Assembly (NCBI GenBank): GCA_031370675.1
Contig: JANMQT010000038.1
Span: 1 to 24,000 of the forward strand
DNA length: 24,000 bases
DNA from: Verrucomicrobiota bacterium
GTDB lineage: Bacteria > Verrucomicrobiota > Verrucomicrobiia > Chthoniobacterales > SZAS-18
Direction of reading: 5' to 3'
The notes beneath the pieces were generated by a model, which searched no databases, was not told the origin of the DNA, and saw only the letters and a list, made by a program, of their open reading frames with translations. The translations under genes were made by a program, and so were the position numbers. The first letter of the stretch is position 1. Each line of letters begins with the position of its first letter. Shown one piece after another: positions 811 to 18,673 of the stretch.

Positions 811-3189
811 ATGGCCGACTCGCCTACGCCCGGGCCCGTTCCATCGAAACCCGCGACGCGATCGCGCGAATCCGACGAGAGTTCCCGGATTCAGGCCTTG
901 CGCCGTGAGGGTCACGAATTGGGCCGCAATCTGGAAATCGCGACCCGGCAAATTCAGACCGAGCGCGGTCGGGTTGAATCGATGCGGCGCAGCCTTTCGT
1001 GGCGGCTCACACTCCCTTTTCGCGTCCTCCAGCGCGCCTGGTCCGGCCGTTCGACCGCGCCTCCGCCACCCGCGCCTGTCACCAGCCCGGCGGCGGCGCG
1101 CGCGGCGGAACCGGGCGAGGTCGAATTTCAGTGGCATCTCGATCAGCCCTCCCCGGATCAGATTCATGAGGGGCAAATTCGATTCAGGGGCTGGTGCCTG
1201 GACGCGGGCGGGCGACCCTTTTCCCGCCTGCGCATCCACGCGGGAGCTGATGCCGTGGAGTCGGGCGTCCATCTGCCGAGACCTGATGTCGTGATGTTGC
1301 TCGGGCTCGCGCCCGCCAGCTTGCGCTGCGGATTCGATCTCCGCGTGACGATTCCGCGGGGGAGCGCCGGCGTGACGATCGAAGCCCTCAATGAGCGGGA
1401 TCTCCGCTGGCGGACGATGGAGGTGCTTGAGGTTGCCGGAGCGGCGAGCCGCGGCGGCGGTGACGATGAGGCCGCGCCGTATCGCGCGTGGCTCGCGCAG
1501 CATGACCGATTCGACAACGTGGCGCGAGGCCGGCTCGTCGCCCGTTGCCAGGCGCTGGCGACTCCGCCGCGCATCTCGATCCTGATGCCGACGTGGCAGA
1601 CGGCCGAGCTGTGGCTGCGCGCCGCCATCGAGTCGGTGCGCAACCAGGCCTATGCCCACTGGCAGTTGTGCATCGCCGATGACGCCTCCACCGCGCCGCA
1701 CGTGCGCCGGATTCTCGAGGAATATTCGCGGCTGGATGCGCGCATCGTGCACGTGGTGCGGCCGGAGCGCGGCCACATTTCGGCGGCCACCAACCGCGCG
1801 CTCGAGCTCGCCGACGGTGACTGGATCACGTTTCTGGATCACGACGACGAGCTGCATCCCGCGGCGCTGGCCTGCCTCGCGCTCGAGATTGCCGCGCATC
1901 CGGAGGCCGAGTTGATTTATACGGACGAGGACAAACTGGATGAGGCCGGCCGCCGCTCGACACCGTATTTCAAGCCCGATTGGAATCCCGAGCTCATCAT
2001 CGGACAGAATTTTGTCTGCCACCTCGCGGCGTATCCGGCCGCGCGCCTGCGGGCGCTCGGCGGGCTGCGCGTCGGATTCGAGGGCTGCCAGGACTGGGAC
2101 CTCTTGCTGCGCGCGACCGCGGCGCGGGCCGACGCGCGCGTGCGCCACATCCCGCGCGTGCTCTACCACTGGCGCATGCTGCCGGGATCCACCGCTCGCG
2201 ACCATGGCGTGAAGTCATACGTGATCGCCGCAGGCGAGCGCACGTTGCGCGAGCATTTCACGCGCGCCGGCCTGCCCGCGACGCGGCTCGACGTAAATGC
2301 CTCCGGCCACTGGCGCGCGAGTTATCCCCTGCCCGAGCCGGCGCCACTGGTTTCGGTTCTCATCCCCACGAGAAATCAGCTCGAACACCTCCGGCGCTGC
2401 GTCGACTCCATCCGCGCGAAGACGGATTATCCGAACTACGAAATCGTTGTGGTCGACAATCAGTCCGACGATTCCGCGACACGCGAACAGCTGGCGCATT
2501 GGGAGCGCAGCGGGGGCGTGCGCGTGCTGCCGTACGATGCGCCGTTCAACTACGCGGCGCTGCACAATTTCGCCGTGCCGAAGTGCCGGGGTGAATTGAT
2601 CTGCCTGTTGAACAACGACACCGAGGTCATCTCGCCCCGCTGGTTGCGCGAGCTGGCCGGACACGCAATCCGGCCTTCCGTGGGCGCGGTCGGCGCCATG
2701 CTGCTCTACCCGGACGACACCATCCAGCACGCCGGGATCTTCGTCGGCATCGGCGGCGTGGCGGAGCATCCCTACCATCGGGAACCGCGTGACAGCGGCG
2801 GCCAGATGAGCCGGTTGCTGGTCGCGCAAAATCTTTCCGCGGTCACCGGCGCCTGCCTGATGATTCGCGCGTCACTCTATGCGGAGGCCGGCGGACTGGA
2901 CGAGACGAATCTCGCCATCGCCTACAACGACGTCGATTTCTGCCTGCGCCTCGTCGCGCTCGGCTATCGCAATGTCTGGACGCCCCTCGCCGTCTTGTAT
3001 CATCACGAATCGGTCTCGCGCGGCTACGAGGACACGCCGGAGAAAGTGGCGCGCTTTCGGCGCGAGTACGATTACATGCGCCAACGGTGGGCCGCCCGGC
3101 TGGATCACGATCCGGCGTACAATCCAAACCTGACGCTGCAGCACACCGACTTCGGCCTGGCTCGCGAACCCCGGGTCGACCCCTGGTGA
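811..3189 (+). CDS. Bifunctional family-2 glycosyltransferase (two GT2 catalytic domains) with an N-terminal coiled coil and a beta-rich spacer domain
   Basis: ATG at 811. N-terminal heptad-like helix (aa ~25-60), then SLSWRLTLPFRVL, a motif I recall after coiled coils in polysaccharide-cluster GT/MT proteins. A GW...RPDV spacer domain follows. GT2 domain 1 (aa ~255-455): ISILMPTWQ...CIADDAS...FLDHDDEL...QDWDLLLR. GT2 domain 2 (aa ~513-735): VSVLIPTRN...VVVDNQSDD...LLNNDTEV...GACLMIR...YNDVDFCLR...HHES. Confidence 0.9.
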   Translation: MADSPTPGPVPSKPATRSRESDESSRIQALRREGHELGRNLEIATRQIQTERGRVESMRRSLSWRLTLPFRVLQRAWSGRSTAPPPPAPVTSPAAARAAEPGEVEFQWHLDQPSPDQIHEGQIRFRGWCLDAGGRPFSRLRIHAGADAVESGVHLPRPDVVMLLGLAPASLRCGFDLRVTIPRGSAGVTIEALNERDLRWRTMEVLEVAGAASRGGGDDEAAPYRAWLAQHDRFDNVARGRLVARCQALATPPRISILMPTWQTAELWLRAAIESVRNQAYAHWQLCIADDASTAPHVRRILEEYSRLDARIVHVVRPERGHISAATNRALELADGDWITFLDHDDELHPAALACLALEIAAHPEAELIYTDEDKLDEAGRRSTPYFKPDWNPELIIGQNFVCHLAAYPAARLRALGGLRVGFEGCQDWDLLLRATAARADARVRHIPRVLYHWRMLPGSTARDHGVKSYVIAAGERTLREHFTRAGLPATRLDVNASGHWRASYPLPEPAPLVSVLIPTRNQLEHLRRCVDSIRAKTDYPNYEIVVVDNQSDDSATREQLAHWERSGGVRVLPYDAPFNYAALHNFAVPKCRGELICLLNNDTEVISPRWLRELAGHAIRPSVGAVGAMLLYPDDTIQHAGIFVGIGGVAEHPYHREPRDSGGQMSRLLVAQNLSAVTGACLMIRASLYAEAGGLDETNLAIAYNDVDFCLRLVALGYRNVWTPLAVLYHHESVSRGYEDTPEKVARFRREYDYMRQRWAARLDHDPAYNPNLTLQHTDFGLAREPRVDPW

Positions 3190-3196
3190 CCCCGCC

Positions 3197-3919
3197 ATGA
3201 AACATCGCGAAGCCTGCTACGCGCTGCTGGCCGGCGATGGGATCGACATCGGCGCCCTGCATGAACCCGCCCCGCTGCCGCCCGCCTGCCGCGTGCGCTA
3301 TGTCGATGCCCTCACCCGCGACGAGGCCATCGCGTGCTTCCCGGAAATTGATCATGCGCGGCTGGTGACGCCTGATTTCATCTGCAACCTCGATCGGGCT
3401 GCGCTGCCGTTTCCCGACGATTCGCTGGACTTTGTCGTGCTCAGCCATGTCATCGAGCACGTCGCCAATCCGGTCCGCGTCATCGGTGAAATCTTCCGGG
3501 TTCTGCGTCCAGCCGGCCGGGCGCTAATCGCGGCGCCGGACAAACGATTCACCTTCGACGACAGCCGCGCGCTCACGCCGATCACCATGCTGCTGGAAGA
3601 CTTCCTTGAGCACCGCACGGACGTGCCCGACGAGCGTTACCTTGATTTTCTGCACGGCGCCGGGGCGCATGTTTTTGACGAACCGCCCGAACGCCTGCCC
3701 GGTCACGTGGCCCGGGCGCGCGCGCGGCGTGAACATTGCAGCGTGTGGGACAGCGCGGCCTTCCGCGAATTCCTCGAGGCGGCGCTCCGGGCGACCCACA
3801 CGCAGGCGATCCCCGTACGCGAGCACCTCGGCGACGAAACCCAGCTGGAGTATTGCGGGGTCTGGGAGAAGCACCGGCCATCAATCTGGCGGCGACTCTT
3901 CAAGGGCCATTCCGCCTGA
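3197..3919 (+). CDS. Class I SAM-dependent methyltransferase (Methyltransf_11-like)
   Basis: ATG at 3197, 8 nt after the GT stop, suggesting an operon. Motifs: GDGIDIGA (motif I-like) and LDFVVLSHVIEHVANP...IFRVLRPAGRALIAAP, typical of the class I MTase fold. Confidence 0.8.
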   Translation: MKHREACYALLAGDGIDIGALHEPAPLPPACRVRYVDALTRDEAIACFPEIDHARLVTPDFICNLDRAALPFPDDSLDFVVLSHVIEHVANPVRVIGEIFRVLRPAGRALIAAPDKRFTFDDSRALTPITMLLEDFLEHRTDVPDERYLDFLHGAGAHVFDEPPERLPGHVARARARREHCSVWDSAAFREFLEAALRATHTQAIPVREHLGDETQLEYCGVWEKHRPSIWRRLFKGHSA

Positions 3920-3932
3920 GCAATCCGCCCCC

Positions 3933-3981
3933 CCTCGACCCTCCACCCTCGACCCTCGACGCTTCGTTTTCGACTTTCGAC
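3933..3981. repeat. Seven tandem heptanucleotides: CCTCGAC CCTCCAC CCTCGAC CCTCGAC GCTTCGT TTTCGAC TTTCGAC
   Basis: Read directly from the sequence. TCGA-type cores sit at 3935, 3942 (TCCA), 3949, 3956, 3964 (TCGT), 3970 and 3977. The array lies in the 90-nt spacer between the two methyltransferase genes and ends 28 nt before the ATG at 4010. Confidence 0.9.
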
Positions 3982-4009
3982 CCACGCAGATCTCAGCCAT
4001 CTTTCCGTC

Positions 4010-5065
4010 ATGCCTCCTGCCCTCGCAGCCAGAGCGCCCGGCGCGGTTGCGCACGCGTTCGACGAGTCAGATTTCGGCCATACCGAGCTCGCGCCGACCC
4101 ATCGCATCGATCTGCGCCCGTCGAACACGCCCGATGTCTTCTTCGACGCCGAGCCGGTTTCCGACTGGACCGCACTTTCGTGGGAAAAGCTCGGCCGTCC
4201 CTACCGCGTCGAGCGCTGGTCAAAGGAAAAGCAGGCGTGGGAGCGCGAGCACGGGCAGGAAATGCCGGTGAAGGAATGCTGGACGCATTTCAACCGCTCC
4301 TTTCAGAAATACTTCGATGCCGATCCCGTCGCTGCGCGCCGCGCATCGCTCGGCAAACTGGGTCGGGCGGCCGCCCGTTTCAACGCCGGTGACGTGCGTG
4401 ACGCACTCGAGGAGACCGTGCAATGGAGCGTTTGGAATCACATCCACAAGAAGGAGGACGCCGTCTGGGACCCGCGCGGAAAGCGCGCGTTGTTCGAGGG
4501 TCTCGACGTGAAGCGGCCGAATATTCTCTTCCTCGGCGCGGCCGACGGCTACGAGGCGATGCAAATCATGGCCCTGTATCCCGGAGGGCACGCCGTGCTG
4601 GTGGACTACGACGAATACTGCCGCGATCACCGCTTTGGCGCGTTCCCCGGCAGCTATCCCTTCATCGGCACCAACCCCGCCACCGGCGGCGCAAAGGTCT
4701 GGTATCGCGACGAGATGAACATCGACTTCGAGGTATGCGACATCCGCGATTTAAAATACGGCGCGGAGTTTGACGTCGTCGTCAGCATCGGCCTGGTCGA
4801 GCATTTCCCCGATGAATTCAAACCGCTGGCGTTCGAGATGCACCGGAAATTCCTCAAGCCGGGCGGGCGCGTCATCATCACGACGCCGCGGCTGCAGTTG
4901 AAGTCGAAGCTGTTCTACACGCTCTTTGCCGACTCGATGAATTTTGCGTACCGCGAGCTGATGGACATCACGCACCTCGGGCTCTACGCGTGGGAAAACG
5001 GTTTCGAGATCCTGCGCCACGGCCGCATCAAGGCGCACAACGGCCTCATTTGCCGGGCGCGATAG
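4010..5065 (+). CDS. SAM-dependent methyltransferase with a ~170-aa N-terminal extension of unknown function
   Basis: ATG at 4010. MTase core: NILFLGAADGYEAM (motif I), AVLVDYD, FDVVVSIGLVEHFPDE, FLKPGGRVIITTP. I recognise no family in the first ~170 aa. The start codon is therefore less certain than the reading frame. Confidence 0.75.
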   Translation: MPPALAARAPGAVAHAFDESDFGHTELAPTHRIDLRPSNTPDVFFDAEPVSDWTALSWEKLGRPYRVERWSKEKQAWEREHGQEMPVKECWTHFNRSFQKYFDADPVAARRASLGKLGRAAARFNAGDVRDALEETVQWSVWNHIHKKEDAVWDPRGKRALFEGLDVKRPNILFLGAADGYEAMQIMALYPGGHAVLVDYDEYCRDHRFGAFPGSYPFIGTNPATGGAKVWYRDEMNIDFEVCDIRDLKYGAEFDVVVSIGLVEHFPDEFKPLAFEMHRKFLKPGGRVIITTPRLQLKSKLFYTLFADSMNFAYRELMDITHLGLYAWENGFEILRHGRIKAHNGLICRAR

Positions 5066-5104
5066 TTTTCTCGACTGCGCTCTCGCGGCTGGCATGGTGC
5101 CGCG

Positions 5105-5542
5105 ATGAAACGTTCGATGCTATTCCTCGTCAGTTCGCTGGTCGCGCTCACCGTCGTTCTCGGTTCCGAAGTCAATCCCGCCGACAAAACGGCGATAGAA
5201 CAGGTCATCGCCGCTCAGGTGGACGCGTGGAACGCGGGTAATCTTGAGGGATTCATGCGCGGCTACCTGAAGTCGGACAACATCCGCTTCCTCAGTGGCG
5301 CAAGCATCACGCGTGGTTGGACGACGGTGTTGGAACGTTACCAAAAGGGCTACCCGGACAAGGACACGATGGGGAAACTCTCGCTGGGTGATTTCGAATT
5401 CACCGACCTCGGTCCGGAAACCGTCCTGGTGGTGGGTCGCTGGATGGTCGTCAACACGAAGGGCGAGTTCAAGGGAGTGACGAGCCTGGTGTTCCAACGG
5501 ACCAAGGACGGTTGGAGAATTGTGCACGATCATACGAGCTGA
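5105..5542 (+). CDS. Exported DUF4440 / SnoaL-like (NTF2-fold) protein
   Basis: ATG at 5105. N-terminal signal-like segment MKRSMLFLVSSLVALTVVLG. Core pattern AIEQVIAAQVDAWNAGNLEGFM...GRWMV...VFQRTKDGWRIVHDHTS is typical of DUF4440/NTF2-like proteins. Confidence 0.7.
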   Translation: MKRSMLFLVSSLVALTVVLGSEVNPADKTAIEQVIAAQVDAWNAGNLEGFMRGYLKSDNIRFLSGASITRGWTTVLERYQKGYPDKDTMGKLSLGDFEFTDLGPETVLVVGRWMVVNTKGEFKGVTSLVFQRTKDGWRIVHDHTS

Positions 5543-5568: not shown

Positions 5569-6780
5569 TCATATCTGCGCTCCCGTCGCTTGCGGAAGCG
5601 GAGGTGGTTTCACGGCCTCAAACTGACTCGCCCAATCGACCCTGGCGGTGACGGCCATCAACAATCCGAGAGTGACAATCGCGCCGATCGTGATCGTCAG
5701 GCCCGTCAATCCATCGAAGAAAAAACTGTAGCTGAACAACACGAGATACGCGAACTGGGCCGCCGCCGCAATGCGCGCGAAGGCTGGCGTGGAGAGGGCG
5801 CGTACGTAACCGGCCACGAGTCCCAGCGAGACGATCGACGCGATGACGAAGGCGACGTGCAGCGGGATGAGATCGACGAGGTAGGCGAACAGCAGCTGAA
5901 AAGCAAAGAAGCCGGCCGCGAAAAAGAAGTAATGCACCGGGTGAAAATGCAGCCCGCGCACGGCCCCGAGAATCAAGAGCACACTAAAGAAAAAGAGGAG
6001 TGACACGGGGGCGAAGAAAGTGATCCGGGAGGCGACCGGCCCCGGATTCAAGACCGTCGGCATCGCCATCCCGATCGCCTGCGCGCCTATCACATCGGGA
6101 TACTTCCAGTCCAACCGCCAGCCTGCATCCTCCCGCACCCGATCGCCCGGCGAGCCCGTCCCGACCGGGAAATCGATCTCGGCAAAATCGGTGACCATCG
6201 TCAGCGCGAAGTTTCGGATGCGATTGGCGTGACCAAAGGAATAGTCCCAGCGATCCACGCCGCGCGAGCGATAGGCTGCCTTGACCGTGGCCGAGGCGCC
6301 CGGTGGAAGCGTCACGGCCTCGGTGATCCCGGCGGAAGCGGCAACCGCGTTCGTCGAGACCTTGTCGCCAACTCGGAATGAGAAATTCTCGTAGCTCGTG
6401 TCCTTCGCCGGAAATTGAAAATGGACGTAGACTGTCTGGGTGATGGGCGTCGGGTTTTCCAGGCGATAGTCGGCCGCGAAATCGACCACATACGTGCGAT
6501 AGCGCAGCAGCCCGCGTCGCTTCGGTTCGTACTTCAGCCGCACGCGCACCTCACTCGCGGCCGGCTGGATGCGCTGCTTGCCGTCGGGGCTGGCCGGAGA
6601 CGCGTAATAGACAACCGGATGCGATTGCGACATTGCTGGGCCCCAGCCCTGGGAGATGCTCGACTCGAAATTCTTCGAGCGGTCAGCCGTGCGAAAGGCG
6701 AGACTCTGACCCAGCACGAACCAGCCCAACGAGGTGCAAAGAAAGATGGCTCCGATGGCGAGAAGACGTTGGATGCTCAT
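5569..6780 (-). CDS. creD: CreD-family inner-membrane (cell envelope integrity) protein
   Basis: ATG at 6780. Topology matches CreD: one N-terminal TM helix, a ~215-aa periplasmic region, then five C-terminal TM helices. Motifs match my recollection of E. coli CreD: RGLHFHPVHY vs QRLHPMQY, VAFVIASIVSLG vs VAWIIASLIGAI, and TARVDW vs TRNIDW. It is the last gene of a creB/creC-like locus. Confidence 0.65.
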   Translation of the reverse strand: MSIQRLLAIGAIFLCTSLGWFVLGQSLAFRTADRSKNFESSISQGWGPAMSQSHPVVYYASPASPDGKQRIQPAASEVRVRLKYEPKRRGLLRYRTYVVDFAADYRLENPTPITQTVYVHFQFPAKDTSYENFSFRVGDKVSTNAVAASAGITEAVTLPPGASATVKAAYRSRGVDRWDYSFGHANRIRNFALTMVTDFAEIDFPVGTGSPGDRVREDAGWRLDWKYPDVIGAQAIGMAMPTVLNPGPVASRITFFAPVSLLFFFSVLLILGAVRGLHFHPVHYFFFAAGFFAFQLLFAYLVDLIPLHVAFVIASIVSLGLVAGYVRALSTPAFARIAAAAQFAYLVLFSYSFFFDGLTGLTITIGAIVTLGLLMAVTARVDWASQFEAVKPPPLPQATGAQI

Positions 6781-6829
6781 AGGGTGGCGATGCGAGGTTC
6801 GGGTGGAAAAGTTTGTCGGGCGGTCTGCA

Positions 6830-8554
6830 TCAGGGGGCTACCGCGCGTTTCTGATAGAAGAGCGCCACGCGCGGGGCCTCACCTTTGCAGATCTCTTTGC
6901 GCAAGCGGATGACCGTGGCAGGGGAGGCCGTTACGGTCCGTCCCGGCGGGGCCATTTCGACGTTGCCCTCAAACGCCGTCAGTTCGTAGGCGGCTGGCAA
7001 CTGCACCTCCCAGCCAATCAAACTCGTGAAGAGTTCCGTGCGCGGCAGCATCAGCTCCAGCCGGCCCGCAACCGGTGCGAATTTTTCCGCGCGCGCCGAA
7101 TAGGAGAAAGCCACCCGGGTGAGCCTGTTTTCCGCAACCGCCGGCAACGTGAATTCGACCACGTCATTGCCCCGGTCAATCGGGCTCGCCTCCCGGCCAT
7201 TAATCGAACACTCGAGCAGTTCGCTCCCTCCTGGCAGCTCCACGCGCAGCGCCTGCGGTCGATCGTGACGAACCGTGAATTTCGCTTCGGCGAGAAGGCT
7301 TCCTTCTGCCACCACCCGCATCTCGAACTGCGCGTCGTCGATCCGGGCCTGCGAAGTTGCCACCACCGAAAGTCGCTTCACCTTGACCACGGCAGTGGTT
7401 TCGCCCGGCGCCGCGTGAATCGTCGCATAACCCAACCCGCCCAACATGCCCGTCAGGGACGGACCTGGTTCATCGAGACCGACGCTCCCTGCCGGATTCC
7501 CCGCCCCCGCGGTAATTTCCAGTCCCGGTCGAGCCGCAACAAAGAAAACCGAACGCTGGGCGACGCACCCGTTGACCATCGGCGCAGTGAGAATCCACTC
7601 ACCGTCTCGCGCGGTCAGCGGCATTTCATAGACCACCCTCACCTCGCGGGCAAAGCGTTCGAGACCGTTCCAACGAATCACCACCACGCGGTGCAGGCCA
7701 TCATCGGAGCGCGTGGTATCCCAGCGCTCAAGACTCTCGCCGTCCACTTCCCGCACGTTCGTCATGGCGGGCAGAAACAGGCGCATCTCCGTCGTGTCGC
7801 CATCGACCCCGTTCGCGAGAATGCGGGAGCGGCAGGCCAGACGGCCCTCCTCCGCGGCGACCACCGTTTGCACGTCTGCGTTCCACGAAGAAGCGACCGG
7901 TTTTTTCTTCGAGCGCCGTTCGCTGCCGACCACCGTGAACGCGAGGTCGGGCGCCGCGCCGAGTCGAAAGAGCGTTCCGGCCGCCCCGGGGCCGTTGAGT
8001 CGCACGCCGTCGGTCAGCTCCACCAGGGAGCCGGCCGGCACCCCGACAAAACTCGCCTCCGAAATCAGCGCCGGGGGAACGGTCAGACGCAGACCCGGCG
8101 CCGTTCCGGTGGCATTCGACAAGCGAACCGCGAAGCGGATCGTGACGCTGCGCTTACCGGTTCCAAACATCATCAGCGTATAGGAACCATCTCGAAGTGC
8201 GACGGCTGCCGCCTCCGGAGCAACACTTTCAATCCGCACGTCCGCCGGCAGGAGCGGCACCAGGGTCCAACCGTCTTCGAAGTTCGTCACCTCAAAGGTG
8301 GCCCGGCAGACCACCGAAGTTAGATCCGGCGAAAATTCGAAGGCATAGCGAGCCAGCGAAAGCGCGTGCGCCAGCGGTGGCGCGGGTTTGACCGGGGGCT
8401 TCACGTGCGCCGCATCCCACAGCGCGCGGAGTTCCGCGTAGGGAATCGTGACGGATGTAGCGACAACATCCGGCGGTTCGGCGAAGGCACCATCCACCGC
8501 GGAGCTGAGCGACGCGCAGCCGACTAGGAGACGAACCGGAAACGGGATGGACAT
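6830..8554 (-). CDS. Exported hypothetical protein, beta-rich, with three apparent internal modules. No family recognised.
   Basis: ATG at 8554. N-terminus MSIPFPVRLLVGCASLSSAVDGAFA is either a signal peptide cleaved after AFA or a lipoprotein signal with lipobox LVGC. Balanced amino-acid composition, unlike the Arg-rich antisense ORF at 6734-8323. Sits between the creC-like and creD-like genes with 71-nt and 49-nt spacers. Confidence 0.75.
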   Translation of the reverse strand: MSIPFPVRLLVGCASLSSAVDGAFAEPPDVVATSVTIPYAELRALWDAAHVKPPVKPAPPLAHALSLARYAFEFSPDLTSVVCRATFEVTNFEDGWTLVPLLPADVRIESVAPEAAAVALRDGSYTLMMFGTGKRSVTIRFAVRLSNATGTAPGLRLTVPPALISEASFVGVPAGSLVELTDGVRLNGPGAAGTLFRLGAAPDLAFTVVGSERRSKKKPVASSWNADVQTVVAAEEGRLACRSRILANGVDGDTTEMRLFLPAMTNVREVDGESLERWDTTRSDDGLHRVVVIRWNGLERFAREVRVVYEMPLTARDGEWILTAPMVNGCVAQRSVFFVAARPGLEITAGAGNPAGSVGLDEPGPSLTGMLGGLGYATIHAAPGETTAVVKVKRLSVVATSQARIDDAQFEMRVVAEGSLLAEAKFTVRHDRPQALRVELPGGSELLECSINGREASPIDRGNDVVEFTLPAVAENRLTRVAFSYSARAEKFAPVAGRLELMLPRTELFTSLIGWEVQLPAAYELTAFEGNVEMAPPGRTVTASPATVIRLRKEICKGEAPRVALFYQKRAVAP

Positions 8555-8577
8555 GGCCGCCAGAAAAGCCGGCCCGC

Positions 8578-8615
8578 GTGAAGCCTTGATGAACTTCGCG
8601 TGAAGTTTCGATGAA
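8578..8615 (-). promoter_or_regulatory. Candidate CreB-type response-regulator binding array: TTCAT-n6-TTCAC-n6-TTCAT-n6-TTCAC
   Basis: Minus strand 8615->8578 reads TTCATcgaaacTTCACgcgaagTTCATcaaggcTTCAC. That is four direct pentamers at exact 11-bp spacing. Each half differs by one base from the E. coli 'cre tag' TTCACnnnnnnTTCAC. It is also a 22-bp tandem duplication (16/22 identical). It ends 23 nt upstream of the ATG of the 574-aa gene. The pattern is certain; its function is inferred. Confidence 0.55.
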
Positions 8616-8625
8616 TTCCTGCGAT

Positions 8626-10104
8626 CTACGCGAGCGGCAGCCGGACCGTGAACGTCGATCCCGTACCCGGCTCACTCACGACTTCAATCGTTCCCCGTGC
8701 GGCGCGAAGTATCGATTTCACGAGGGCCAGACCCAGGCCGGTGCCACGCAATCCTGTCCGGGGATTCTCAGTGGTAAAAAATCGATCGAAAATCTTCGGC
8801 TGGATCGACGCTTCCATCCCTTTCCCCTCGTCGCGCATCGTGAGCACTGCGCTCCGCGTCGAGAGCTCGGCCTGGAGCGACAGTTCAACGGCCTTGCCCG
8901 GGGGAGTAAACTGAAACGCGTTGTCGGCGAGGTTTCCAACCACTTGGTCGAAATGTTCTCCAGACATCCGGCACCGCAGCGGTTTATCCCCCGTGGTCCA
9001 TGTGAACCGAATCCCAAGCCGTTCCGCGCGCACTTGCAAGTGGTCCTCCGCAAGTCGCCCGAGGTTTTCCCGCAGGTCGATCGGCGTCACGGTGGCGGGA
9101 GCCGGAGCGGTTTCAATCCGAGACAATTTGAGCAGGTCGTCGACGATCTGATTCAGGCGCGCCGCCTCGAGCTGGATGTTGGCGAGAAACTTCCCGCGCA
9201 CCGCTTCATCATTCACGGCGCCATCCTCCAGCAGTTCCGCGGAGCCGCGGATGGCCGCCAGCGGAGTCTTCAACTCGTGCGAGAGATTCGTCACCATTTC
9301 CTCGACGTAAGCCTTGCCCTCCAGCTTTTGGCGCATTTTCTCAACCGCTCGCGCGAGCGTGCCCAATTCGCTCCGGGTCCAGGTCTCCAACCGGACATCC
9401 GTTTCGCCCGCCGCGACCCGCTCCGCCCGCGTCGCGAGCCCCCCGACGATGCGCGTCAGGTAGGCTGAAAGCACGTAAGCGAGCAAGGTCGCGATCGTCA
9501 CTGCCGCCAGTCCCGGCAGCGCCAGTTCGCGCAAGGCCCGGATAATCGCCAGCCGGCTTCGGAGGGTCGGCTTCACAATCGTCACCGCGCCGACGATGCT
9601 TGCGCCGGTCCACACCGGGAGCGTGCTGAAGAGATTTACCCGGTTCGAATTCGGGTCGAGTTGCCACCGGCTCCCGTAACGACCCTGCAGGGCCTGCCGA
9701 ACTTCCAACAGCTGGCGGTCGTCACGCCCGCTTTGCCGGACTTGCTGCGTGTCGTAAAGCACCACGCCCTTCGCGTCATAGAAGATTAGACGAGTATCGG
9801 CGTCATCCTTCGTGAAGCCAAAGAGCCGCGCCTTGGTCGAGCGGCTGCTTTCGAAATCGGAAAACATCGCGGCAAAATTCTCCCGCAGTTTGGCCGGGTC
9901 GTTTCCGTTTTGCGCGGCAAGTCGCGCGTAGAGTTCGCCGACCACCGCCGCCGTATCGATCATGCCCTCCTCCGTGGCGCGAAGCTGGGTGGCCTCGAGG
10001 TTCAGGCGCACCTGCCACGCCAAATACACCACCGGTAGAAACAGCACCGCCAGGTGAAAGATAAACACCTTCCAGTGAATGCTGTGCAAACCGGGAAATC
10101 GCAT
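8626..10104 (-). CDS. creC: Two-component sensor histidine kinase, CreC-like
   Basis: ATG at 10104, 2 nt after the response-regulator stop. N-terminal TM, periplasmic domain, second TM and HAMP. H-box is SHELKTPLAAIRGSAELL. N/G boxes are DNAFQFT, DEGKGM and GTGLGLALV. Blocks match recalled E. coli CreC: ATEEGMIDTAAVVGEL vs ATEGTLIDTATLLAEL, LQGRYGSRW vs LRGQYGARS, and MRQKLEGKAYVEE vs MRVKLEGKNYIEQ. Confidence 0.85.
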   Translation of the reverse strand: MRFPGLHSIHWKVFIFHLAVLFLPVVYLAWQVRLNLEATQLRATEEGMIDTAAVVGELYARLAAQNGNDPAKLRENFAAMFSDFESSRSTKARLFGFTKDDADTRLIFYDAKGVVLYDTQQVRQSGRDDRQLLEVRQALQGRYGSRWQLDPNSNRVNLFSTLPVWTGASIVGAVTIVKPTLRSRLAIIRALRELALPGLAAVTIATLLAYVLSAYLTRIVGGLATRAERVAAGETDVRLETWTRSELGTLARAVEKMRQKLEGKAYVEEMVTNLSHELKTPLAAIRGSAELLEDGAVNDEAVRGKFLANIQLEAARLNQIVDDLLKLSRIETAPAPATVTPIDLRENLGRLAEDHLQVRAERLGIRFTWTTGDKPLRCRMSGEHFDQVVGNLADNAFQFTPPGKAVELSLQAELSTRSAVLTMRDEGKGMEASIQPKIFDRFFTTENPRTGLRGTGLGLALVKSILRAARGTIEVVSEPGTGSTFTVRLPLA

Positions 10105-10106
10105 GA

Positions 10107-10817
10107 TTACTCCATGGCCCGATACCCGACCCCACGCACCGTTTCAATGAGCGACGCGGCTGAGCCCAACTTCCGCCGTAAGGTCTTGATGTGCGCATCG
10201 ATGGCTCGGTCGGTGACCATTCCGCCCTCATCCCAGGCCCGATCGAGCACCTCTTCCCGCGTGAAGACCCGGCCCGGCGCACTGAGCAACAAATCGAGCA
10301 GTTTGAACTCCTGGCGCGTCAGCGCCAGCGCGGCTCCGCCACACTTCGCCTGAAAGCGCGCGCGATCGAGTTCGACCGGCCCGTGCCGGACGATGGCCGC
10401 CGCTTCGCCCGCCGGTGGCTTCGCGCTGGCGCTGAGGCGCAATGCCACCAGGTGACGGCGCACCACCTTAATCCGTGCCTGCAGCTCCCGCGTACTGAAC
10501 GGCTTCGTCAGGTAGTCGTCACCTCCGATCTCCAGGCCAACCACGCGATTGATTTCATCGGTCCGCGAAGTGAGAAAAAGAATGGGCAAGTCCGAAAACT
10601 TGCGGATCGCGCGACATACTTCGAAGCCGTCAATGTCAGGCAGGCCTACGTCGAGAATCAAAATGTCGGGGCGCTGCGTTCCGCGGCAAATCGCGATCGC
10701 CGTCGCGCCCCGGTTCGTCTTCTGCACCTCGTAAGATTCTGCCTGGAGCGCGTACTCGACGACCTCGGCCACGTGCGGATCGTCCTCAACCACGAGAATG
10801 CGCAACGGGTGTTCCAC
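10107..10817 (-). CDS. creB: OmpR-family DNA-binding response regulator, CreB-like
   Basis: GTG start at 10817 (MEHPLRILVVEDD). Receiver domain with acceptor Asp in ILILDVGLPDIDGFEVCR (E. coli CreB: ILDVGLPDISGFELCR). Also LFLTSRTDEINRVVGLEIGGDDYLTKPFS. Winged-helix output: ALTRQEFKLLDLLLSAPGRVFTRE...DRAIDAHIKTLRRKL...VRGVGY. Confidence 0.9.
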   Translation of the reverse strand: MEHPLRILVVEDDPHVAEVVEYALQAESYEVQKTNRGATAIAICRGTQRPDILILDVGLPDIDGFEVCRAIRKFSDLPILFLTSRTDEINRVVGLEIGGDDYLTKPFSTRELQARIKVVRRHLVALRLSASAKPPAGEAAAIVRHGPVELDRARFQAKCGGAALALTRQEFKLLDLLLSAPGRVFTREEVLDRAWDEGGMVTDRAIDAHIKTLRRKLGSAASLIETVRGVGYRAME

Positions 10818-10935
10818 GAGGACGGAATCTACCCAACCCGAAGAAGCGTGTCATCCGTCCATGTTGGTGCGGCAGCTAAATCGAACCAGTTAGGTCGTGG
10901 ACTTCGCCACTTCCTGACGGCATCATCGAACTGAC

Positions 10936-12600
10936 ATGCCCACCAAGCTGGCCCGCTCGGGTCTCTCCATCGCCCTTTCGTTGCTTGTGCTGATCGACGC
11001 CGGCTGCTCGCGCCGCGCGACCGACGTCGAGATCGGCAATCGCGAGGGCATCCTGCATCTTGGCGGCGGCGGCGAACCGCGCGACCTGGACCCGACCACC
11101 AACATCGGCGCCGCCGAGAGTCGAATTCTCCAGGCCCTGTTTGAAGGCCTCGTGATCGTGTCGCCCGATGGAAAAGCGATCGTGCCGGCGGCGGCGGAGC
11201 GCTGGGAAATTTCGCCGGACGGACGCGTCTATACTTTTCACCTGCGGCCCGGCCTGAAGTGGAGCAACGGCGATCCGGTTACAGCCGATGACTTTCTCTA
11301 CGGTTTTCGGAGAGTGCTCGAGCCCGCGGTCGGCGCGGAGGCCGCGCAGCAGGCTTTCATCGTCAAGGGCGCGCGGGACTACGTCGAGGGCCGGAACAAG
11401 GACCCACAATCGATCGGTTTCCGCGTGGTGGACCCGCTTACCTTCGAGGTCACGCTGGATTATCCGGCGACCTATTTCCTCGGCCAGATCGGCTACTACC
11501 CGTTCTATCCGCTGCACCGGCCCACCCTCGAAAAATTCGACGGATATCTGCGCCGCAACTCAGGCTGGACACGGCCGGGCAACCTGGTCGGCAACGGCGC
11601 CTTCCGGCTGAAAGCGTGGCGCCAGAATGACGCCGTCGCGGTGGAAAAGAGTCCCACCTACTGGGACGCGGAGCGCGTGCGCCTGCGCGGGGTGGTCTTC
11701 CACTCGATCGACAATCCCGACGCGGAGGAACTGGCGTTTCGCGGCGGTCGTCTCCATGTCACCTACGGTCTCGCCGCCACCAAGGTGGAGGCTTATCGCA
11801 CGGCGAAGTCGCCCTTCCTGCACGTCGAGCCCGAACTCCGGAGCCAGTGGATCGCGTTTAATGTCACCGAGCCACCCTTCACGGACGCGCGCGTCCGGCG
11901 CGCGCTCGCGCTCGCGGTCGATCAAGAGGCTTTGGCGCGCGATGTCCTGCGCGGCCAGCAACCCGCCGGAAGCATCGTGGTTCCCGGCGCTGGCGGATAC
12001 ACGGGCCACAGCCTGGTACGGCGCGATCCGGAACGAGCGCGCGCGTTGCTCGCCGAGGCCGGATTCCCCGCTGGCGCTGGCTTTCCAAGGGTCAGCTTGA
12101 ATTATACCGCGCGCTCGGGCTGGAAGGAAGCCTGCGAGGCGCTGCAGTACATGTGGCAAAAGGAACTCGGCATCCGGGTTGAGCTCGCGCAACTCGAATA
12201 CAAGGTCTGGCTCGACGCGCTGCGCGGCCGCAAACACCAGTTCAGCTACGACGGCTGGGGATCGTTTGTGGATGATGCGGTGGAGTGGATTGGGCTTTAC
12301 GCGTCCCAATCGCCGAACAACGACAGCGGCTGGGGCAACGCGGCCTACGATGAACACGTGAAAGCAGCTGAGCGAGCTGTCACCCAGGCGGATCGCTTCG
12401 ATCATTTTCGTGCCGCGCAGGCGATACTGCTCGAGGAAATGCCCGTCATTCCGCTCTATCACCAGAACCGCAACTACCTGATGCAAACTTCGGTGCGCGG
12501 CTGGCAGGACAACCTGCTCGACACCCACCCGCTCAAGGAGGTCTGGCTCGACGCCGCCGGCGGCGCGGTCGCCCGACCCGCCACCATCGCGCAACCTTGA
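10936..12600 (+). CDS. ABC-transporter substrate-binding protein, family 5 (peptide/nickel, OppA/DppA-like), probable lipoprotein
   Basis: ATG at 10936. N-terminus ...LSLLVLIDAGCSRR has a lipoprotein-like Cys, but position -3 is atypical. Family-5 SBP blocks: AESRILQALFEGLV, PAAAERWEISPDGRVYTFHLRPGLKWSNGDPVTADDF, LVGNGAFRLKAW, IPLYHQNRNYL. No permease or ATPase genes are adjacent. Confidence 0.85.
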   Translation: MPTKLARSGLSIALSLLVLIDAGCSRRATDVEIGNREGILHLGGGGEPRDLDPTTNIGAAESRILQALFEGLVIVSPDGKAIVPAAAERWEISPDGRVYTFHLRPGLKWSNGDPVTADDFLYGFRRVLEPAVGAEAAQQAFIVKGARDYVEGRNKDPQSIGFRVVDPLTFEVTLDYPATYFLGQIGYYPFYPLHRPTLEKFDGYLRRNSGWTRPGNLVGNGAFRLKAWRQNDAVAVEKSPTYWDAERVRLRGVVFHSIDNPDAEELAFRGGRLHVTYGLAATKVEAYRTAKSPFLHVEPELRSQWIAFNVTEPPFTDARVRRALALAVDQEALARDVLRGQQPAGSIVVPGAGGYTGHSLVRRDPERARALLAEAGFPAGAGFPRVSLNYTARSGWKEACEALQYMWQKELGIRVELAQLEYKVWLDALRGRKHQFSYDGWGSFVDDAVEWIGLYASQSPNNDSGWGNAAYDEHVKAAERAVTQADRFDHFRAAQAILLEEMPVIPLYHQNRNYLMQTSVRGWQDNLLDTHPLKEVWLDAAGGAVARPATIAQP

Positions 12601-12682
12601 GCGTCACGACGCTCGCCTCCGGGATCCGGAAGGTGCTAGGCTGCTCGCGTGCTTCGGTAGCTTTCGACGCGATCGATCCCTG

Positions 12683-14005
12683 ATGAATGCCACTTCCCGA
12701 ATGGACCTAGCTGCGGCCGCGCGCGTTCTGATGCTCGCGGGTTTGATGTTGATCTTGCCGGGTCCGGTCGCGGCGGCCGATCCCTCCGAGCTGCGGACCG
12801 ATGGCGCGGCCTACGGCGACTGGACCACCGACGCGCCCGGCGTGCGCCGCCGGATCGTCGTCCGCGATATGCCGCCGCCAAAGGCCACAAAGTCCGCCGC
12901 GAATTTTTCGCGCGTCATCGCCCGACCAGAGGGCGCGCTGCCGCGCGTGCCGCCGGGATTTCGGGTCGAGGAATTCGCCAGCGGATTCAACGAGCCGCGC
13001 ATTATCGTGACCGCGCCGAACGGCGACATCTTTGTTGCCGAGAGCAAGGGGAATCGCGTGCGCATTCTGCGCGACGCGAACGGCGACGGGAAGCCGGAGT
13101 TAAACGAGGTGTTTGTGGAGGGTCTGAACCGGCCGTTCGGAATCGCGTTTTATCCACCGGGCCCGGAGCCCAAGTTCATCTATATCGGAAACACCGATGG
13201 CGTGGTTCGGTTCCCCTATCGCAACGGCCAGACCAAGGCCGCGGGCCCGGCGCAACCCATCGTCAGCTTGCCCAGCGGCGGACTGCTCGCCGGCGGCGGG
13301 CATTGGACGCGCGACGTCAAGTTTTCCGCGGATGGAAAGCGCATGTTCGTGTCAATCGGCTCTCGTTCGAACAATGATGACGACAGCAGCGAGGCGCGCC
13401 GCGCGCGGATTCTGGAATTCGATCCCGAAGGTAGCAATGAGCGGGTGTATGCCTCGGGTCTGCGCAACGCCGTGGGCATCGCCATCGATCCGGCCACCGG
13501 CGCTCTCTGGGCCACCTGCAATGAACGCGACGGCCTGGGCGACGACCTGCCGCCGGACTATGTCACGCGCGTGAAGGAAGGCGCATTTTACGGCTGGCCA
13601 TGGTTTTACCTCGGGCCCAACGAGGATCCCAAGCATGTGGGCACCCACCCGGAACTCGCCGACAAGATCACGGTGCCTGACGTCCTATTGCAACCGCATT
13701 CCGCCCCGCTTGGTCTCGCGTTTTACAACGGGAAGAAATTTCCCGCGGAATATCGCGGCCAGGCCTTTGTGGCCTGCCACGGTTCCTGGAATCGTGCCAA
13801 GCGCACGGGCTACAAGATTGTGCGCGTCCCCGTGAAGGACGGAAAACCCATTGGCGAATACGTCGATTTCCTGATCGGCTTCGTCACGCCGCAAGGGGAC
13901 GTCTGGGGCCGGCCGGTGGGGGTGACGACGACCAACGACGGCGCGCTACTCGTGACCGACGACGGCGGCAATCGGATTTGGCGCGTAAGTTTTGGCGAGA
14001 AATAG
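12683..14005 (+). CDS. PQQ-dependent sugar (glucose/sorbosone) dehydrogenase family protein, exported beta-propeller
   Basis: ATG at 12683 (alternative Met 6 codons downstream). Signal peptide ...LMLAGLMLILPGPVAAADP. Family blocks: GFRVEEFASGFNEPRIIVTAPNGDIFVAES, RPFGIAFYP, GGHWTRDVKFSADGKRMFVSIGS, GLRNAVGIAIDPATGALWATCNERDGLGDDLPPDY, HSAPLGLAFY, FVACHGSWNR. Confidence 0.85.
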   Translation: MNATSRMDLAAAARVLMLAGLMLILPGPVAAADPSELRTDGAAYGDWTTDAPGVRRRIVVRDMPPPKATKSAANFSRVIARPEGALPRVPPGFRVEEFASGFNEPRIIVTAPNGDIFVAESKGNRVRILRDANGDGKPELNEVFVEGLNRPFGIAFYPPGPEPKFIYIGNTDGVVRFPYRNGQTKAAGPAQPIVSLPSGGLLAGGGHWTRDVKFSADGKRMFVSIGSRSNNDDDSSEARRARILEFDPEGSNERVYASGLRNAVGIAIDPATGALWATCNERDGLGDDLPPDYVTRVKEGAFYGWPWFYLGPNEDPKHVGTHPELADKITVPDVLLQPHSAPLGLAFYNGKKFPAEYRGQAFVACHGSWNRAKRTGYKIVRVPVKDGKPIGEYVDFLIGFVTPQGDVWGRPVGVTTTNDGALLVTDDGGNRIWRVSFGEK

Positions 14006-14030
14006 AAGAGGCCGGCCCTGCTGCAGGCCT

Positions 14031-14163
14031 AAACTCGACGTTCGAGACTCGAAACTCGAAGAAATGGCCGAAAGTTTGAAATGACAAAAGCTTCAAAAGC
14101 GAGCGTTTGAACTCTCCTGGTTTTCTCCGCTTAAGGTTTCTTCGAGTTTCGAGTGTCGAGTTT
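14031..14163. repeat. Long imperfect inverted repeat built from TCGA-centred heptads. Possible bidirectional terminator, structured RNA or REP/MITE-like element.
   Basis: Left arm 14031-14064 is AAACTCGACGTTCGAGACTCGAAACTCGAAGAAA. Right arm 14137-14163 is TTTCTTCGAGTTTCGAGTGTCGAGTTT. The right-arm reverse complement matches the left arm at 27/27 positions apart from a 7-nt (one heptad) insertion in the left arm. TCGA cores are at 14035/42/49/56 and 14142/49/56. The right arm is followed by TTTTT. It lies in a 163-nt, visibly AT-richer spacer between convergent genes. Confidence 0.8.
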
Positions 14164-14168
14164 TTCTT

Positions 14169-14948
14169 CTACCCGAGAATCTCCCCGTGCGAATAAGTCT
14201 TCGCGCGCCCACCGAGATGGACACGGTCGCCGTGCAGCTCACAGAACAACTCGCCGCCGCGAGGCGAAATCTGGCGGGCGTGCAACTTCTTCATCCCGAG
14301 CAACCCGGCCCAATGGGGCACGAGCGTGCAGTGCGCGGAGCCCGTCACGGGATCCTCCAGGATGCCCGAGCGAGGCGCGAAGAAACGTGACACAAAATCC
14401 TCCCCGCGGCCGGGAGCCGTGGCAATGATGCCCACCACCGCCAGCTTCGTCATCCAGGCAAAATCCGGCTCGAGCGCCGCGACGTCGTCGCGGCTGCCGT
14501 ACACCACCATGTAATCGCGTGCCTTCCAGCACTCGAGCGGCTGCACCGGCAGGGCTTCCTTCAATTCGATCGGAAGCTCGCAGCGCACGGGCGGGCGCGA
14601 GGGAAAATCCAGCACGATCAAATCGTCGCGACGTTGCACGCGCAATGGGCCGCTCTTGGAGGCAAACTCAATGACTTCGGCCGCGTGGCCGAGGTGATTG
14701 AAGAGCACGTGCGCGGTCGCCACCGTGGCGTGCCCGCACAAATCCACCTCCACCGCGGGCGTAAACCAGCGCAGGCGGTAACCCCCGCCTTCGGGCACAA
14801 AGTATGCCGTCTCGGACAAGTTATGCTCCGCGGCCATCCGCTGCAGCTCGGCATCGGGCAACCATTCCTTGAGCGGACACACCGCGGCGGGATTGCCGAG
14901 GAGACCCTCGCCGGTGAACGCGTCGACGTGAAAATACGGAATCGTCAT
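14169..14948 (-). CDS. PhzF-family isomerase (phenazine biosynthesis PhzF-like / YddE-like)
   Basis: ATG at 14948. Family motifs: FHVDAFT...GNPAAV, LSETAYF, RWFTPAVEVDLCGHATVA, GSAHCTLVPHWA. Only 32 nt downstream of the thiolase stop on the same strand. Confidence 0.85.
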   Translation of the reverse strand: MTIPYFHVDAFTGEGLLGNPAAVCPLKEWLPDAELQRMAAEHNLSETAYFVPEGGGYRLRWFTPAVEVDLCGHATVATAHVLFNHLGHAAEVIEFASKSGPLRVQRRDDLIVLDFPSRPPVRCELPIELKEALPVQPLECWKARDYMVVYGSRDDVAALEPDFAWMTKLAVVGIIATAPGRGEDFVSRFFAPRSGILEDPVTGSAHCTLVPHWAGLLGMKKLHARQISPRGGELFCELHGDRVHLGGRAKTYSHGEILG

Positions 14949-14980
14949 GAGATGACCGCGCGGCCGAAAATCGTGTCCAA

Positions 14981-16153
14981 CTAGAGTCGTTCAATGATTC
15001 CGGCCGCGCCCTGGCCACCGCCGATGCACATGGTGATGAGCGCGTACCGGCCGCCGGTGCGTTGCAACTCATGCAATGCACTCACCGTGAGTTTCGCGCC
15101 GGAGCAGCCGAGCGGATGACCCAGCGCGATCGCGCCGCCGTTCACGTTCACTTTCTCCATCGGTAGCTTGAGCGCGTCGATCACCGCGAGCGATTGCGCG
15201 GCGAAAGCCTCGTTCAGCTCGATCACATCCATGTCCTCGAGCTTGAGACCCGCCTGCTTCAAGACCTTGGGCACGGCCTCAATCGGGCCGATGCCCATGA
15301 TTTCCGGCGGCACGCCCGCAACCGCGAAACTGACGAAACGCGCAAGCGGCTTGAGGCCGAGTTTCTTCGCCTTCTCGTCGCTCATGATAATCAACGCTGC
15401 GGCGCCATCCGAAAGCGGCGAGGAATTTCCCGCCGTCACGCTGCCGCGCGGATTGAACGCCGGCCGCAAACCGGCCAGGCCCTCGAGCGTAGTTTCCTCA
15501 CGGATCAGTTCGTCGGTCGCAAACGGCACGTGCTTCGATTCAACCTTGGTCCCGTTCAACTTGTCCACCCGGACATTCACGGGGACGATCTCGTCGTTGA
15601 ACTTTCCGGCCTGGCGCGCCGCCGCGGCTTTTTGATGGCTCGCCAGCGCGAACTCGTCCTGCCGCTGGCGCGAGACCCCGTATTTTGCCGCGACGTTTTC
15701 CGCGGTGAATCCCATCCCGATGTAGGCTTCGGGCCGGTGGTCAACGAGTTCGGGACTGAGGGAAAGCTTGTTGCCGCTCATCGGCACCATCGTCATGCTT
15801 TCCACGCCGCCGGCGGCGACGCATTCGTTCATGCCGGTCATGACGGACTGGGCCGCCATCGCGATGCTTTGCAGCCCGCTGGAACAGAATCGATTGATCG
15901 TGACGCCGCCGGTGGAATCCGGCAGGCCGGCCAGCAACGCGCTGAGGCGCGCGATGTTCATGCCTTGTTCGCCCTCGGGCATGGCGCAACCGAGGATGAC
16001 GTCCTCGACATCCTTGGGATCGATCCCGGCGCGCTTGACAGCTTCCTTGAGCGCCACGGCGGCGAGCACGTCCGGCCGTGTGTTGGCGAGCGTGCCTTTT
16101 TTCGCGCGACCCACGGCGGTGCGCACGGCGGAGAGGATGACGGCTTGGGGCAT
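14981..16153 (-). CDS. fadA: Acetyl-CoA C-acyltransferase (3-ketoacyl-CoA thiolase)
   Basis: ATG at 16153. Thiolase signatures: active-site Cys in [18 protein letters not shown], and the C-terminal [15 protein letters not shown]...MCIGGGQG. Confidence 0.92.
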
Positions 16154-16163
16154 GGGGAAAGAA

Positions 16164-16198
16164 AGTGAGGAGTGAAAAGTGATGAGTGACGAGTATTT
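16164..16198. repeat. Tandem heptanucleotides AGTGAGG AGTGAAA AGTGATG AGTGACG AGTATTT (coding strand: ...CGTCACT CATCACT TTTCACT CCTCACT)
   Basis: Read directly. GTGA cores are at 16165, 16172, 16179 and 16186, a strict 7-nt period. The array lies in the 67-nt spacer between the fadN/fadB-like stop (16221) and the thiolase ATG (16153). Confidence 0.85.
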
Positions 16199-16220
16199 CG
16201 TAGCGAGCGATGGGCCCGCG

Positions 16221-18524: not shown

Positions 18525-18560
18525 ACGTGCGAGCGAAGCTTTGGGGTGGAAGCGCGGGGA

Positions 18561-18594
18561 CAAAAAAGCGACGGCGTTTCCGGGGAGGCCGTCG
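18561..18594 (-). terminator. Rho-independent terminator-like hairpin downstream of the 184-aa gene
   Basis: Minus strand reads CGACGGC-ctccccggaaac-GCCGTCG followed by CTTTTTTG. The 7-bp GC-rich stem pairs 18569-18575 with 18588-18594. The T6 run is at 18562-18567. It lies ~80 nt after the stop at 18674. Confidence 0.5.
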
Positions 18595-18673
18595 GTGCGC
18601 GGGATGCCTGCTTGTCTAGCGCCGGGCGCGGGAGCCGCAAGTCAAATGTTGGGTGGGCGGGGGAAACCAGCGG

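Follow-up and report, generated by a model that had tools for sequence, protein, structure and literature searches.

A conserved exported protein paired with a distant CreD-family membrane protein in a CreBC-type locus of Verrucomicrobiota

In work on the beta-lactam response and on envelope integrity, activation of CreBC/BlrAB is routinely read out through CreD, whose molecular role is still unknown (PMC10039701, PMC4689548). The locus considered here lies on the minus strand (5569-10817) of a 24-kb stretch of DNA, referred to below as the window, from contig JANMQT010000038.1 of a Verrucomicrobiota bacterium, and carries, in order, genes for a CreB-like response regulator, a CreC-like sensor histidine kinase, a 574-amino-acid (aa) exported protein, designated X, and a 403-aa CreD-like membrane protein, designated D. 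In enterobacterial and pseudomonad creBCD loci creD directly follows creC, as a preliminary description of the window noted and as is seen in the Escherichia coli K-12 locus creA-creB-creC-creD that serves as the reference throughout. The question posed by the window is what a large exported protein is doing between the two, and whether it is a partner of the CreD-like protein. The analysis indicates that the locus is probably a Verrucomicrobial CreBC-CreD envelope module, in which a CreBC-type two-component system would directly target a bicistronic X-creD operon whose products would act together. The host is a soil-type Verrucomicrobial genome, and the conserved target of its CreBC-like system would be the two-gene X-D unit. 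Modules that combine CreBC with CreD are known as a kind; what is new is the conserved extra component, the doubled binding array, an unusual and regular promoter geometry, and the distant phylum.

The case for a partnership rests on the near-universal adjacency of the two genes, the persistence of the pair through rearrangements, the common array that precedes them and their coupled junctions. All 11 independent Verrucomicrobial genomes or contigs that were fetched via homologues of X or D carry regulator, kinase, X and D, and three gene orders occur: regulator-kinase-X-D as in the window, X-D-regulator-kinase (locus L001), and a divergent kinase-regulator pair beside X-D (L007). A metagenome scan anchored on D gave 80 loci with D at 45-62% identity, 71 of them with at least 300 nucleotides (nt) upstream of D, and an open reading frame (ORF) of the X family ends right upstream of D in 70 of these 71 (one of them, L054, judged by eye), which bears out the conserved synteny between the 574-aa gene and creD on which the earlier proposal depended. 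Synteny with creBC is likewise frequent, in the three arrangements just described; where enough flanking sequence was available (23 loci), the two-component genes were upstream in 5, downstream in 7 and absent from the flanks in 11. Given the adjacency in 70 of 71 loci and the mobility of the two-component genes, X and D form a tight pair that CreBC often, but not always, adjoins. The junction between the two genes has a median length of about 40 nt and is a 4-nt overlap in 14 of 88 cases. A scan of species genomes with a narrower X alignment returned only 7 loci, all in Verrucomicrobiota. In the sole locus of the 71 without X (L061, 5780-7203), the cre tag TTCACggggagTTCAT lies immediately ahead of D, and the two-component genes follow D. 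This arrangement corresponds to the proteobacterial-style layout.

The second line of evidence is the DNA between kinase and X. The E. coli cre tag was reportedly defined by Avison and co-workers in 2001 as TTCAC-N6-TTCAC. The 71-nt spacer of the window, gaaTTCATcgaaacTTCACgcgaagTTCATcaaggcTTCACgcgggccggcttttctggcggccATG, holds four TTCAY half-sites with an 11-base-pair (bp) period, the array itself reading TTCATcgaaacTTCACgcgaagTTCATcaaggcTTCAC at 8615-8578 of the minus strand. TTCAY-N6-TTCAY has three overlapping exact matches in this array and none elsewhere in the 24 kb (0.07 expected; 0 of 100 shuffles reach three), so that the cre-tag array noticed earlier before X is real; the four extra sites found in the window when one mismatch is allowed are within chance. 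In E. coli the sequence TTCACcgtcacTTCAC occupies the equivalent position, in the last part of creC and some 65 nt ahead of the creD ATG, and agrees with the published cre tag. Genes of the CreBC regulon carry a tag of the TTCAC-N6-TTCAC type upstream, and X has one with four half-sites. The binding of CreB has been summarized (PMC3962086).

Conservation of the array was assessed as the best four-half-site window in each of 58 non-identical X upstream regions, with a threshold of at least 17 of 20 positions. The array is present in 54 of the 58 and perfect in 29, and neither shuffled sequences nor other windows of the same loci ever exceed 15 of 20. Its consensus is TTCAC-N6-TTCAC-N5C-TTCATCA-N4-TTCAC, and it is kept whether the two-component genes adjoin or not. 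Together with the short or overlapping X-D junctions, the presence of the array in nearly all X upstream regions supports the suggestion, made at the outset from the window alone, that X and D would be co-regulated.

The position of the array is as regular as its sequence. From the fourth half-site to the X ATG there are 22 nt in 26 of the 54 loci, 20-25 nt in 44 of them and 23 nt in the window, and this spacer is fixed in length and variable in sequence. When the loci are aligned on the X ATG, T stands at -7 in 32 of 49, the pattern nAnnnT occupies -12 to -7 in 21 of 49 (at most 6 in other registers), and a G-rich stretch lies immediately 5' of the ATG; a Shine-Dalgarno-like core occurs upstream of X in only 10 of 54 loci. 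The fixed spacing, the single-register nAnnnT and the scarcity of Shine-Dalgarno sequences suggest that a -10 element probably lies 6 nt before the X ATG and that the mRNA is leaderless or near-leaderless. On this placement the array would span about -60 to -23 across the loci and end some 10 nt before the -10 element, and the poor hexamer of the window (TTTTCT) would be as expected of an activator-dependent promoter. Regulation at X-D could be positive or negative; creD is switched on by CreBC in E. coli and Pseudomonas aeruginosa and repressed by it in Stenotrophomonas maltophilia (PMC10039701, PMC4689548). A terminator-like hairpin at 8585-8571 overlaps the last half-site, and the number of hairpins in the window is within chance (5 found, 6.7 expected).

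The two-component genes themselves belong to the expected families. The regulator has the Pfam domains Response_reg and Trans_reg_C, and its best NCBIfam model is CreB (NF008296; 244.2 bits, with BaeR next at 204), below the equivalog cut-off of 273 bits; it aligns with E. coli K-12 CreB over its full length at 43% identity. The kinase has HAMP, HisKA and HATPase_c domains and matches best the CreC model (NF008312; 316.2 bits over residues 9-490, with the next model at 195), again below the equivalog cut-off (356 bits), and it aligns with E. coli K-12 CreC at 31% identity over residues 42-489, the periplasmic sensor domain included. Since counterparts beside X-D elsewhere score higher, the L001 pair passing both cut-offs (CreB 312, CreC 569.5 bits) and the L007 pair reaching 269 and 323 bits, the window pair is treated, as far as sequence allows, as diverged members of the CreBC lineage and not as strict equivalogs. 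In L014 (3802-7723, on contig CAWERT010000004.1 of a metagenome-assembled genome) the reading frames of creB, creC and X are interrupted and run into one another, which yields a 683-aa protein (P0010) consisting of HAMP and HisKA domains plus the X N-terminus; P0010 is most likely an artefact of indel errors in a long-read assembly and no real fusion.

The 403-aa protein had been called CreD-like, and the search with hidden Markov models upholds this at a distance. D passes the gathering score of Pfam CreD (PF06123; 28.3 bits, E 1e-6, gathering score 23) through residues 251-383 only, which correspond to profile positions 294-427 of 428, the C-terminal membrane part; the CreD equivalog NF008712 is matched, also in the C-terminal part only, at 29.3 bits and its cut-off of 275 is not reached. 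BLASTP against E. coli CreD concurs (E 5e-6, residues 189-383), as does hhalign, in which a profile of 28 Verrucomicrobial D homologues was compared with one of 12 enterobacterial CreD proteins (84% probability, E 7e-6, 188-390 against 216-434). Residues 1-187 of D are left unaligned to E. coli CreD by Pfam, BLASTP and hhalign alike, both profiles being of low diversity (effective number of sequences, Neff, about 2). Within the aligned part, residues invariant in both alignments coincide: H279/H322, D302/E345, R213/R240 and T377..W382/T421..W426 (D/CreD). The signature common to the two families thus comprises the HPxxY histidine (H279/H322), an intramembrane acidic residue (D302/E345) and a C-terminal T..DW, and H279, D302, R213 and T377-W382 of D are candidates for a functional site of the membrane domain.

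The architecture agrees as well. In an AlphaFold2 model of D (predicted local distance difference test, pLDDT, 76.5; predicted template modelling score, pTM, 0.61), a long helix at the N-terminus is followed by a beta-sandwich predicted with confidence (49-238) and then by five helices (245-378), and together with the hydropathy profile the model corroborates the 1+5 transmembrane (TM) layout first described for the 403-aa protein. D has the arrangement of CreD, in which a single TM helix at the N-terminus and five motif-bearing TM helices at the C-terminus flank a periplasmic domain, and D is a distant member of the CreD family with the same architecture and not an equivalog of E. coli CreD. 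More than 3780 relatives of D were found, some of which are labelled 'inner membrane CreD family protein' by NCBI. A fold search with the D model gave architecture-level matches only, to pentameric ligand-gated channels (template modelling score, TM-score, <0.25) and 4g2a (0.36-0.43), and these were not used as evidence.

X is harder to place, and most of what can be said about it comes from its own family. Pfam and NCBIfam searches with the window protein gave no match, Pfam gave none with eight distant relatives, PDB sequence searches returned no relative, and among 42 family members searched against Pfam at E<=1 neither a recurring family nor Ribophorin_I appeared. A word-indexed search with X found only 10 relatives; an exhaustive profile search found 3186 representative clusters (50% identity) at E<=1e-3, 331 of them at E<=1e-30. 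With so many matching clusters and no curated model, X must belong to a large, uncurated family, and the sources annotate X solely as 'hypothetical protein'. X begins with a typical Sec signal peptide whose cleavage motif is AFA-E, and a signal-peptide-like N-terminus is found in 39 of the 42 family members. A lipobox-like motif occurs in 6 of the 42 at no conserved position, and close homologues do not keep Cys14 of the window protein; a lipoprotein was ruled out on these grounds, and X is taken to be a secreted periplasmic protein. Of the original wording, 'beta-rich secreted or lipoprotein', the beta-rich and exported character is borne out and the lipoprotein part has been dropped.

The beta-rich character comes from an AlphaFold2 model of X (pLDDT 76, pTM 0.39), which is all-beta and uncertain in its domain arrangement, with three beta-sandwich modules at approximately 60-210, 220-350 and 375-570. 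A short conserved helix, TIPYAELRALW, follows the signal peptide, and the C-terminus carries the conserved motif GEAPRVALFYQKR. Among the 42 diverse members, nearly every invariant residue is G, P, W or Y, which points to a structural or binding role for X and away from an enzymatic one. In Foldseek comparisons of the X model with the PDB the best hits are Ost1/ribophorin I chains (E 3e-10 to 1e-8, about 434 columns), with a TM-score of 0.21-0.32, a root-mean-square deviation of about 17 A and 8-13% identity, and integrin legs and M1-aminopeptidase N-domains are nearly equal runners-up. The resemblance to Ost1 may be a generic similarity among beta-sandwiches and is offered as a lead, with no family assignment. 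The idea that X arose as a copy of the periplasmic domain of CreD and then diverged was also considered and ruled out (hhalign probability 0.25%).

The family varies in length. Short forms of about 360-395 aa are without the middle module; X of about 380-395 aa is found in L023, L028, L038, L046, L050, L056, L064-L066, L069 and L070, and in these loci the CreD-like gene still follows X and the four-half-site array still precedes it. Double forms (1400-1500 aa), of which P0254, P0263, P0275 and P0279 are examples from outside the window, contain two copies of X, each going from the conserved C-terminal motif into TM segments unrelated to D, and P0254 has no adjoining CreD gene.

Taken together, these features suggest the following mechanism. 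The CreC-type kinase, whose periplasmic sensor domain is a homologue of the one in E. coli CreC, would control the CreB-type regulator of the OmpR/PhoB family, which, presumably as two head-to-tail dimers, would bind the four direct TTCAY repeats spaced 11 bp apart. In the window the array would cover about -61 to -24 relative to the X ATG, overlapping the -35 region and ending about 10 nt before the weak -10-like hexamer, and from this layout, which is that of PhoB-dependent promoters, X and the CreD-like protein would be transcribed together on a bicistronic mRNA with no leader or almost none. Sec would export X, which has no conserved residues of the catalytic type, to the periplasm as a soluble protein of three beta-sandwich modules, and D would be anchored in the inner membrane by its 1+5 helices with one beta-sandwich facing the periplasm. 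X and D would then most likely work as a single unit on the periplasmic side of the inner membrane, a device that maintains the envelope through structure or binding and not as an enzyme.

Several observations weigh against this proposal. L061 keeps a CreD-like gene and a cre tag without X, and X is therefore not strictly indispensable. A fusion of X with CreD was sought in 149 representatives and none was found. The double-length forms with TM segments of their own place an X-type ectodomain away from CreD, the similarity of D to CreD is restricted to the membrane half, with no detectable similarity in its first ~190 residues, and the regulator and kinase of the window both fall under the NCBI equivalog cut-offs. 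With regard to the promoter, the -10-like hexamer of the window is a poor one, and an array this near the start codon could equally be an operator. All of the evidence, moreover, comes from uncultured Verrucomicrobiota.

Three other explanations are each less well supported than a partnership of X and CreD encoded in one operon. X might be merely a co-regulated neighbour, an independent periplasmic protein (binding, adhesin-like or a scaffold) whose promoter is common with that of D and which takes no joint action with it. X and D have no sequence relation detectable by hhalign and are nowhere fused, X-type ectodomains occur in double-length proteins far from any CreD gene, L061 retains D alone, and X evolves faster than D (48% against 75% identity to the window proteins in the same genomes), all of which would suit such a neighbour. 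What makes it unlikely is that X and D, with D identities ranging from 45 to 62%, stay adjacent in 70 of 71 loci despite three rearrangements of the neighbouring genes, and that 14 of the 88 junctions are 4-nt overlaps; so persistent a linkage is unusual for functionally unrelated genes.

Alternatively, X might serve the CreC-like kinase as an accessory or feedback protein in the periplasm: induced by the system, it would act back on the sensor domain as CpxP does on CpxA, and D would be an unrelated second output. This role draws on the position of X directly after the kinase gene in the window, as the first gene behind the array, and on its periplasmic location, which is also that of the kinase sensor domain. 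X nevertheless tracks D and not the kinase, the two-component genes being absent nearby in 11 of 23 loci and downstream of D in 7, and at 574 aa and three beta-sandwich modules it is far larger than the known small periplasmic feedback inhibitors, so that we regard this role as improbable. Least probable is that the two-component pair is not of the CreBC type at all but some other OmpR/PhoB-family system, the array being bound by a different regulator or incidental. Both proteins do score below their equivalog cut-offs, and 11-bp direct repeats are common to the whole OmpR/PhoB family; yet CreB leads the next model by 40 bits and CreC by 120, the kinase aligns to E. coli CreC through the sensor domain, the L001 pair exceeds both cut-offs, the E. 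coli cre tag consists of TTCAC half-sites spaced by N6, and the array recurs in 54 of 58 loci.

Partnership of X and CreD thus being preferred, a bolder version of it can be put forward tentatively, with somewhat less than an even chance of being right: X and D would be an obligate two-protein device of the inner membrane, conserved as a direct CreBC output in Verrucomicrobiota via an activator-dependent leaderless mRNA, and the X family would be ribophorin-I-like. The family would then comprise more than 3000 clusters of tandem beta-sandwich proteins in soluble, short and membrane-anchored double forms, and, if the device is indeed obligate, the pair would reveal the general role of CreD proteins.

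Comparison with known systems sets the locus in context. The creABCD (E. coli), creBCD (P. aeruginosa, S. maltophilia) and blrABD (Aeromonas) systems have in common with the window the regulator and kinase families, a CreD-family 1+5-TM protein encoded beside the two-component genes, and TTCAC-N6-TTCAC direct repeats just upstream of the output gene. They differ in that the window has a 574-aa exported protein inserted between the repeats and the CreD-like gene (as in 70 of 71 loci), four half-sites instead of two and no creA, in that its CreD-like protein is recognizable in the membrane half only, and in that the two-component genes of Verrucomicrobial loci are often unlinked from X-D or downstream of it. 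At pho boxes, PhoB binds tandem repeats that overlap the -35 region and end about 10 nt before a weak -10. The putative X promoter is similarly built: tandem direct repeats of 11-bp period cover -35, and some 10 nt separate their end from a weak -10. It departs from the pho box in its half-site (TTCAY, not CTGTCAT) and in the predicted leaderless transcript. Ribophorin I/Ost1 and X as modelled both consist of tandem luminal or periplasmic beta-sandwiches, a structural resemblance only; ribophorin I ends in a TM anchor, and the double-length relatives of X likewise run from the C-terminal motif into TM segments, whereas the window protein has no TM anchor, and no Pfam Ribophorin_I match is found in X or its 42 family members. 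Accessory proteins of the CpxP type resemble X in being periplasmic, encoded beside an envelope-sensing two-component system and probably regulated by it, whereas X is linked to the CreD-like gene and not to the kinase and is large and all-beta where they are small and helical.

X, almost never found apart from a CreD-family gene and lying behind the same array, is a concrete candidate for a partner of CreD. CreBC, its DNA motif and CreD are documented here as a conserved unit in a phylum far from the Proteobacteria; no paper mentioning CreD in Verrucomicrobia was found in the library searched. The X family is documented as a large protein family with no curated model. The regular promoter design, in which a constant 22 nt separate the array from the start codon, predicts leaderless expression. 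These gains have a limit, in that X is without a counterpart in the model organisms where CreD is studied and the examples are uncultured Verrucomicrobiota.

The features of the locus are collected in Table 1. The four minus-strand ORFs and the gaps between them are as first described, in coordinates and strand: 2 nt separate regulator and kinase, 71 nt kinase and X, and 49 nt X and D. A convergent SnoaL-like gene ends 26 nt past D, and the co-directional string of genes therefore stops at D. The sigma-70-like match upstream of the regulator gene is weak evidence for a promoter, as the consensus scan finds one site with 0.8 expected in shuffles. An Rfam scan found no RNA family in the 24-kb window.

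Table 1. Features of the CreBC-X-CreD-type locus, with the evidence for each
Feature	Coordinates	Strand	Evidence
creB-like OmpR/PhoB-family response regulator, 236 aa	10107..10817	-	Pfam, NCBIfam, E. coli CreB alignment
creC-like sensor histidine kinase, 492 aa	8626..10104	-	Pfam, NCBIfam, E. coli CreC alignment
cre-tag-like array, four TTCAY half-sites, 11-bp period	8578..8615	-	pattern scan and conservation
23-nt spacer from array to X ATG, with putative core promoter (-10 region)	8555..8577	-	alignment on ATG
X, 574-aa exported, predicted all-beta three-module periplasmic protein of an uncurated family	6830..8554	-	AlphaFold2, signal peptide, synteny
D, distant CreD-family inner-membrane protein, 403 aa	5569..6780	-	Pfam, hhalign, AlphaFold2
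sigma-70-like promoter match ATGACA-17-TAGATT upstream of regulator gene	10826..10854	-	consensus scan

The surroundings of the locus are also conserved in part. The window flanks at 10936-16153 and 3197-5542 are syntenic with locus L004, the common order being thiolase, PhzF-like, glucose/sorbosone dehydrogenase-like and SBP_bac_5 genes on one side of creB-creC-X-creD and SnoaL-like and methyltransferase genes on the other, and the module is therefore chromosomal and stable and not carried on a mobile element. On the plus strand, the 792-aa product of 811-3189 contains two family-2 glycosyltransferase domains; two methyltransferase genes come next, at 3197-3919 and 4010-5065, and the genes at 811-5065 may constitute a cell-surface polysaccharide cluster near the envelope module. 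Further away, a 922-aa plus-strand ORF at 16179-18947 has no Pfam match, and a 780-aa ORF on the opposite strand (16221-18563) overlaps almost all of it.

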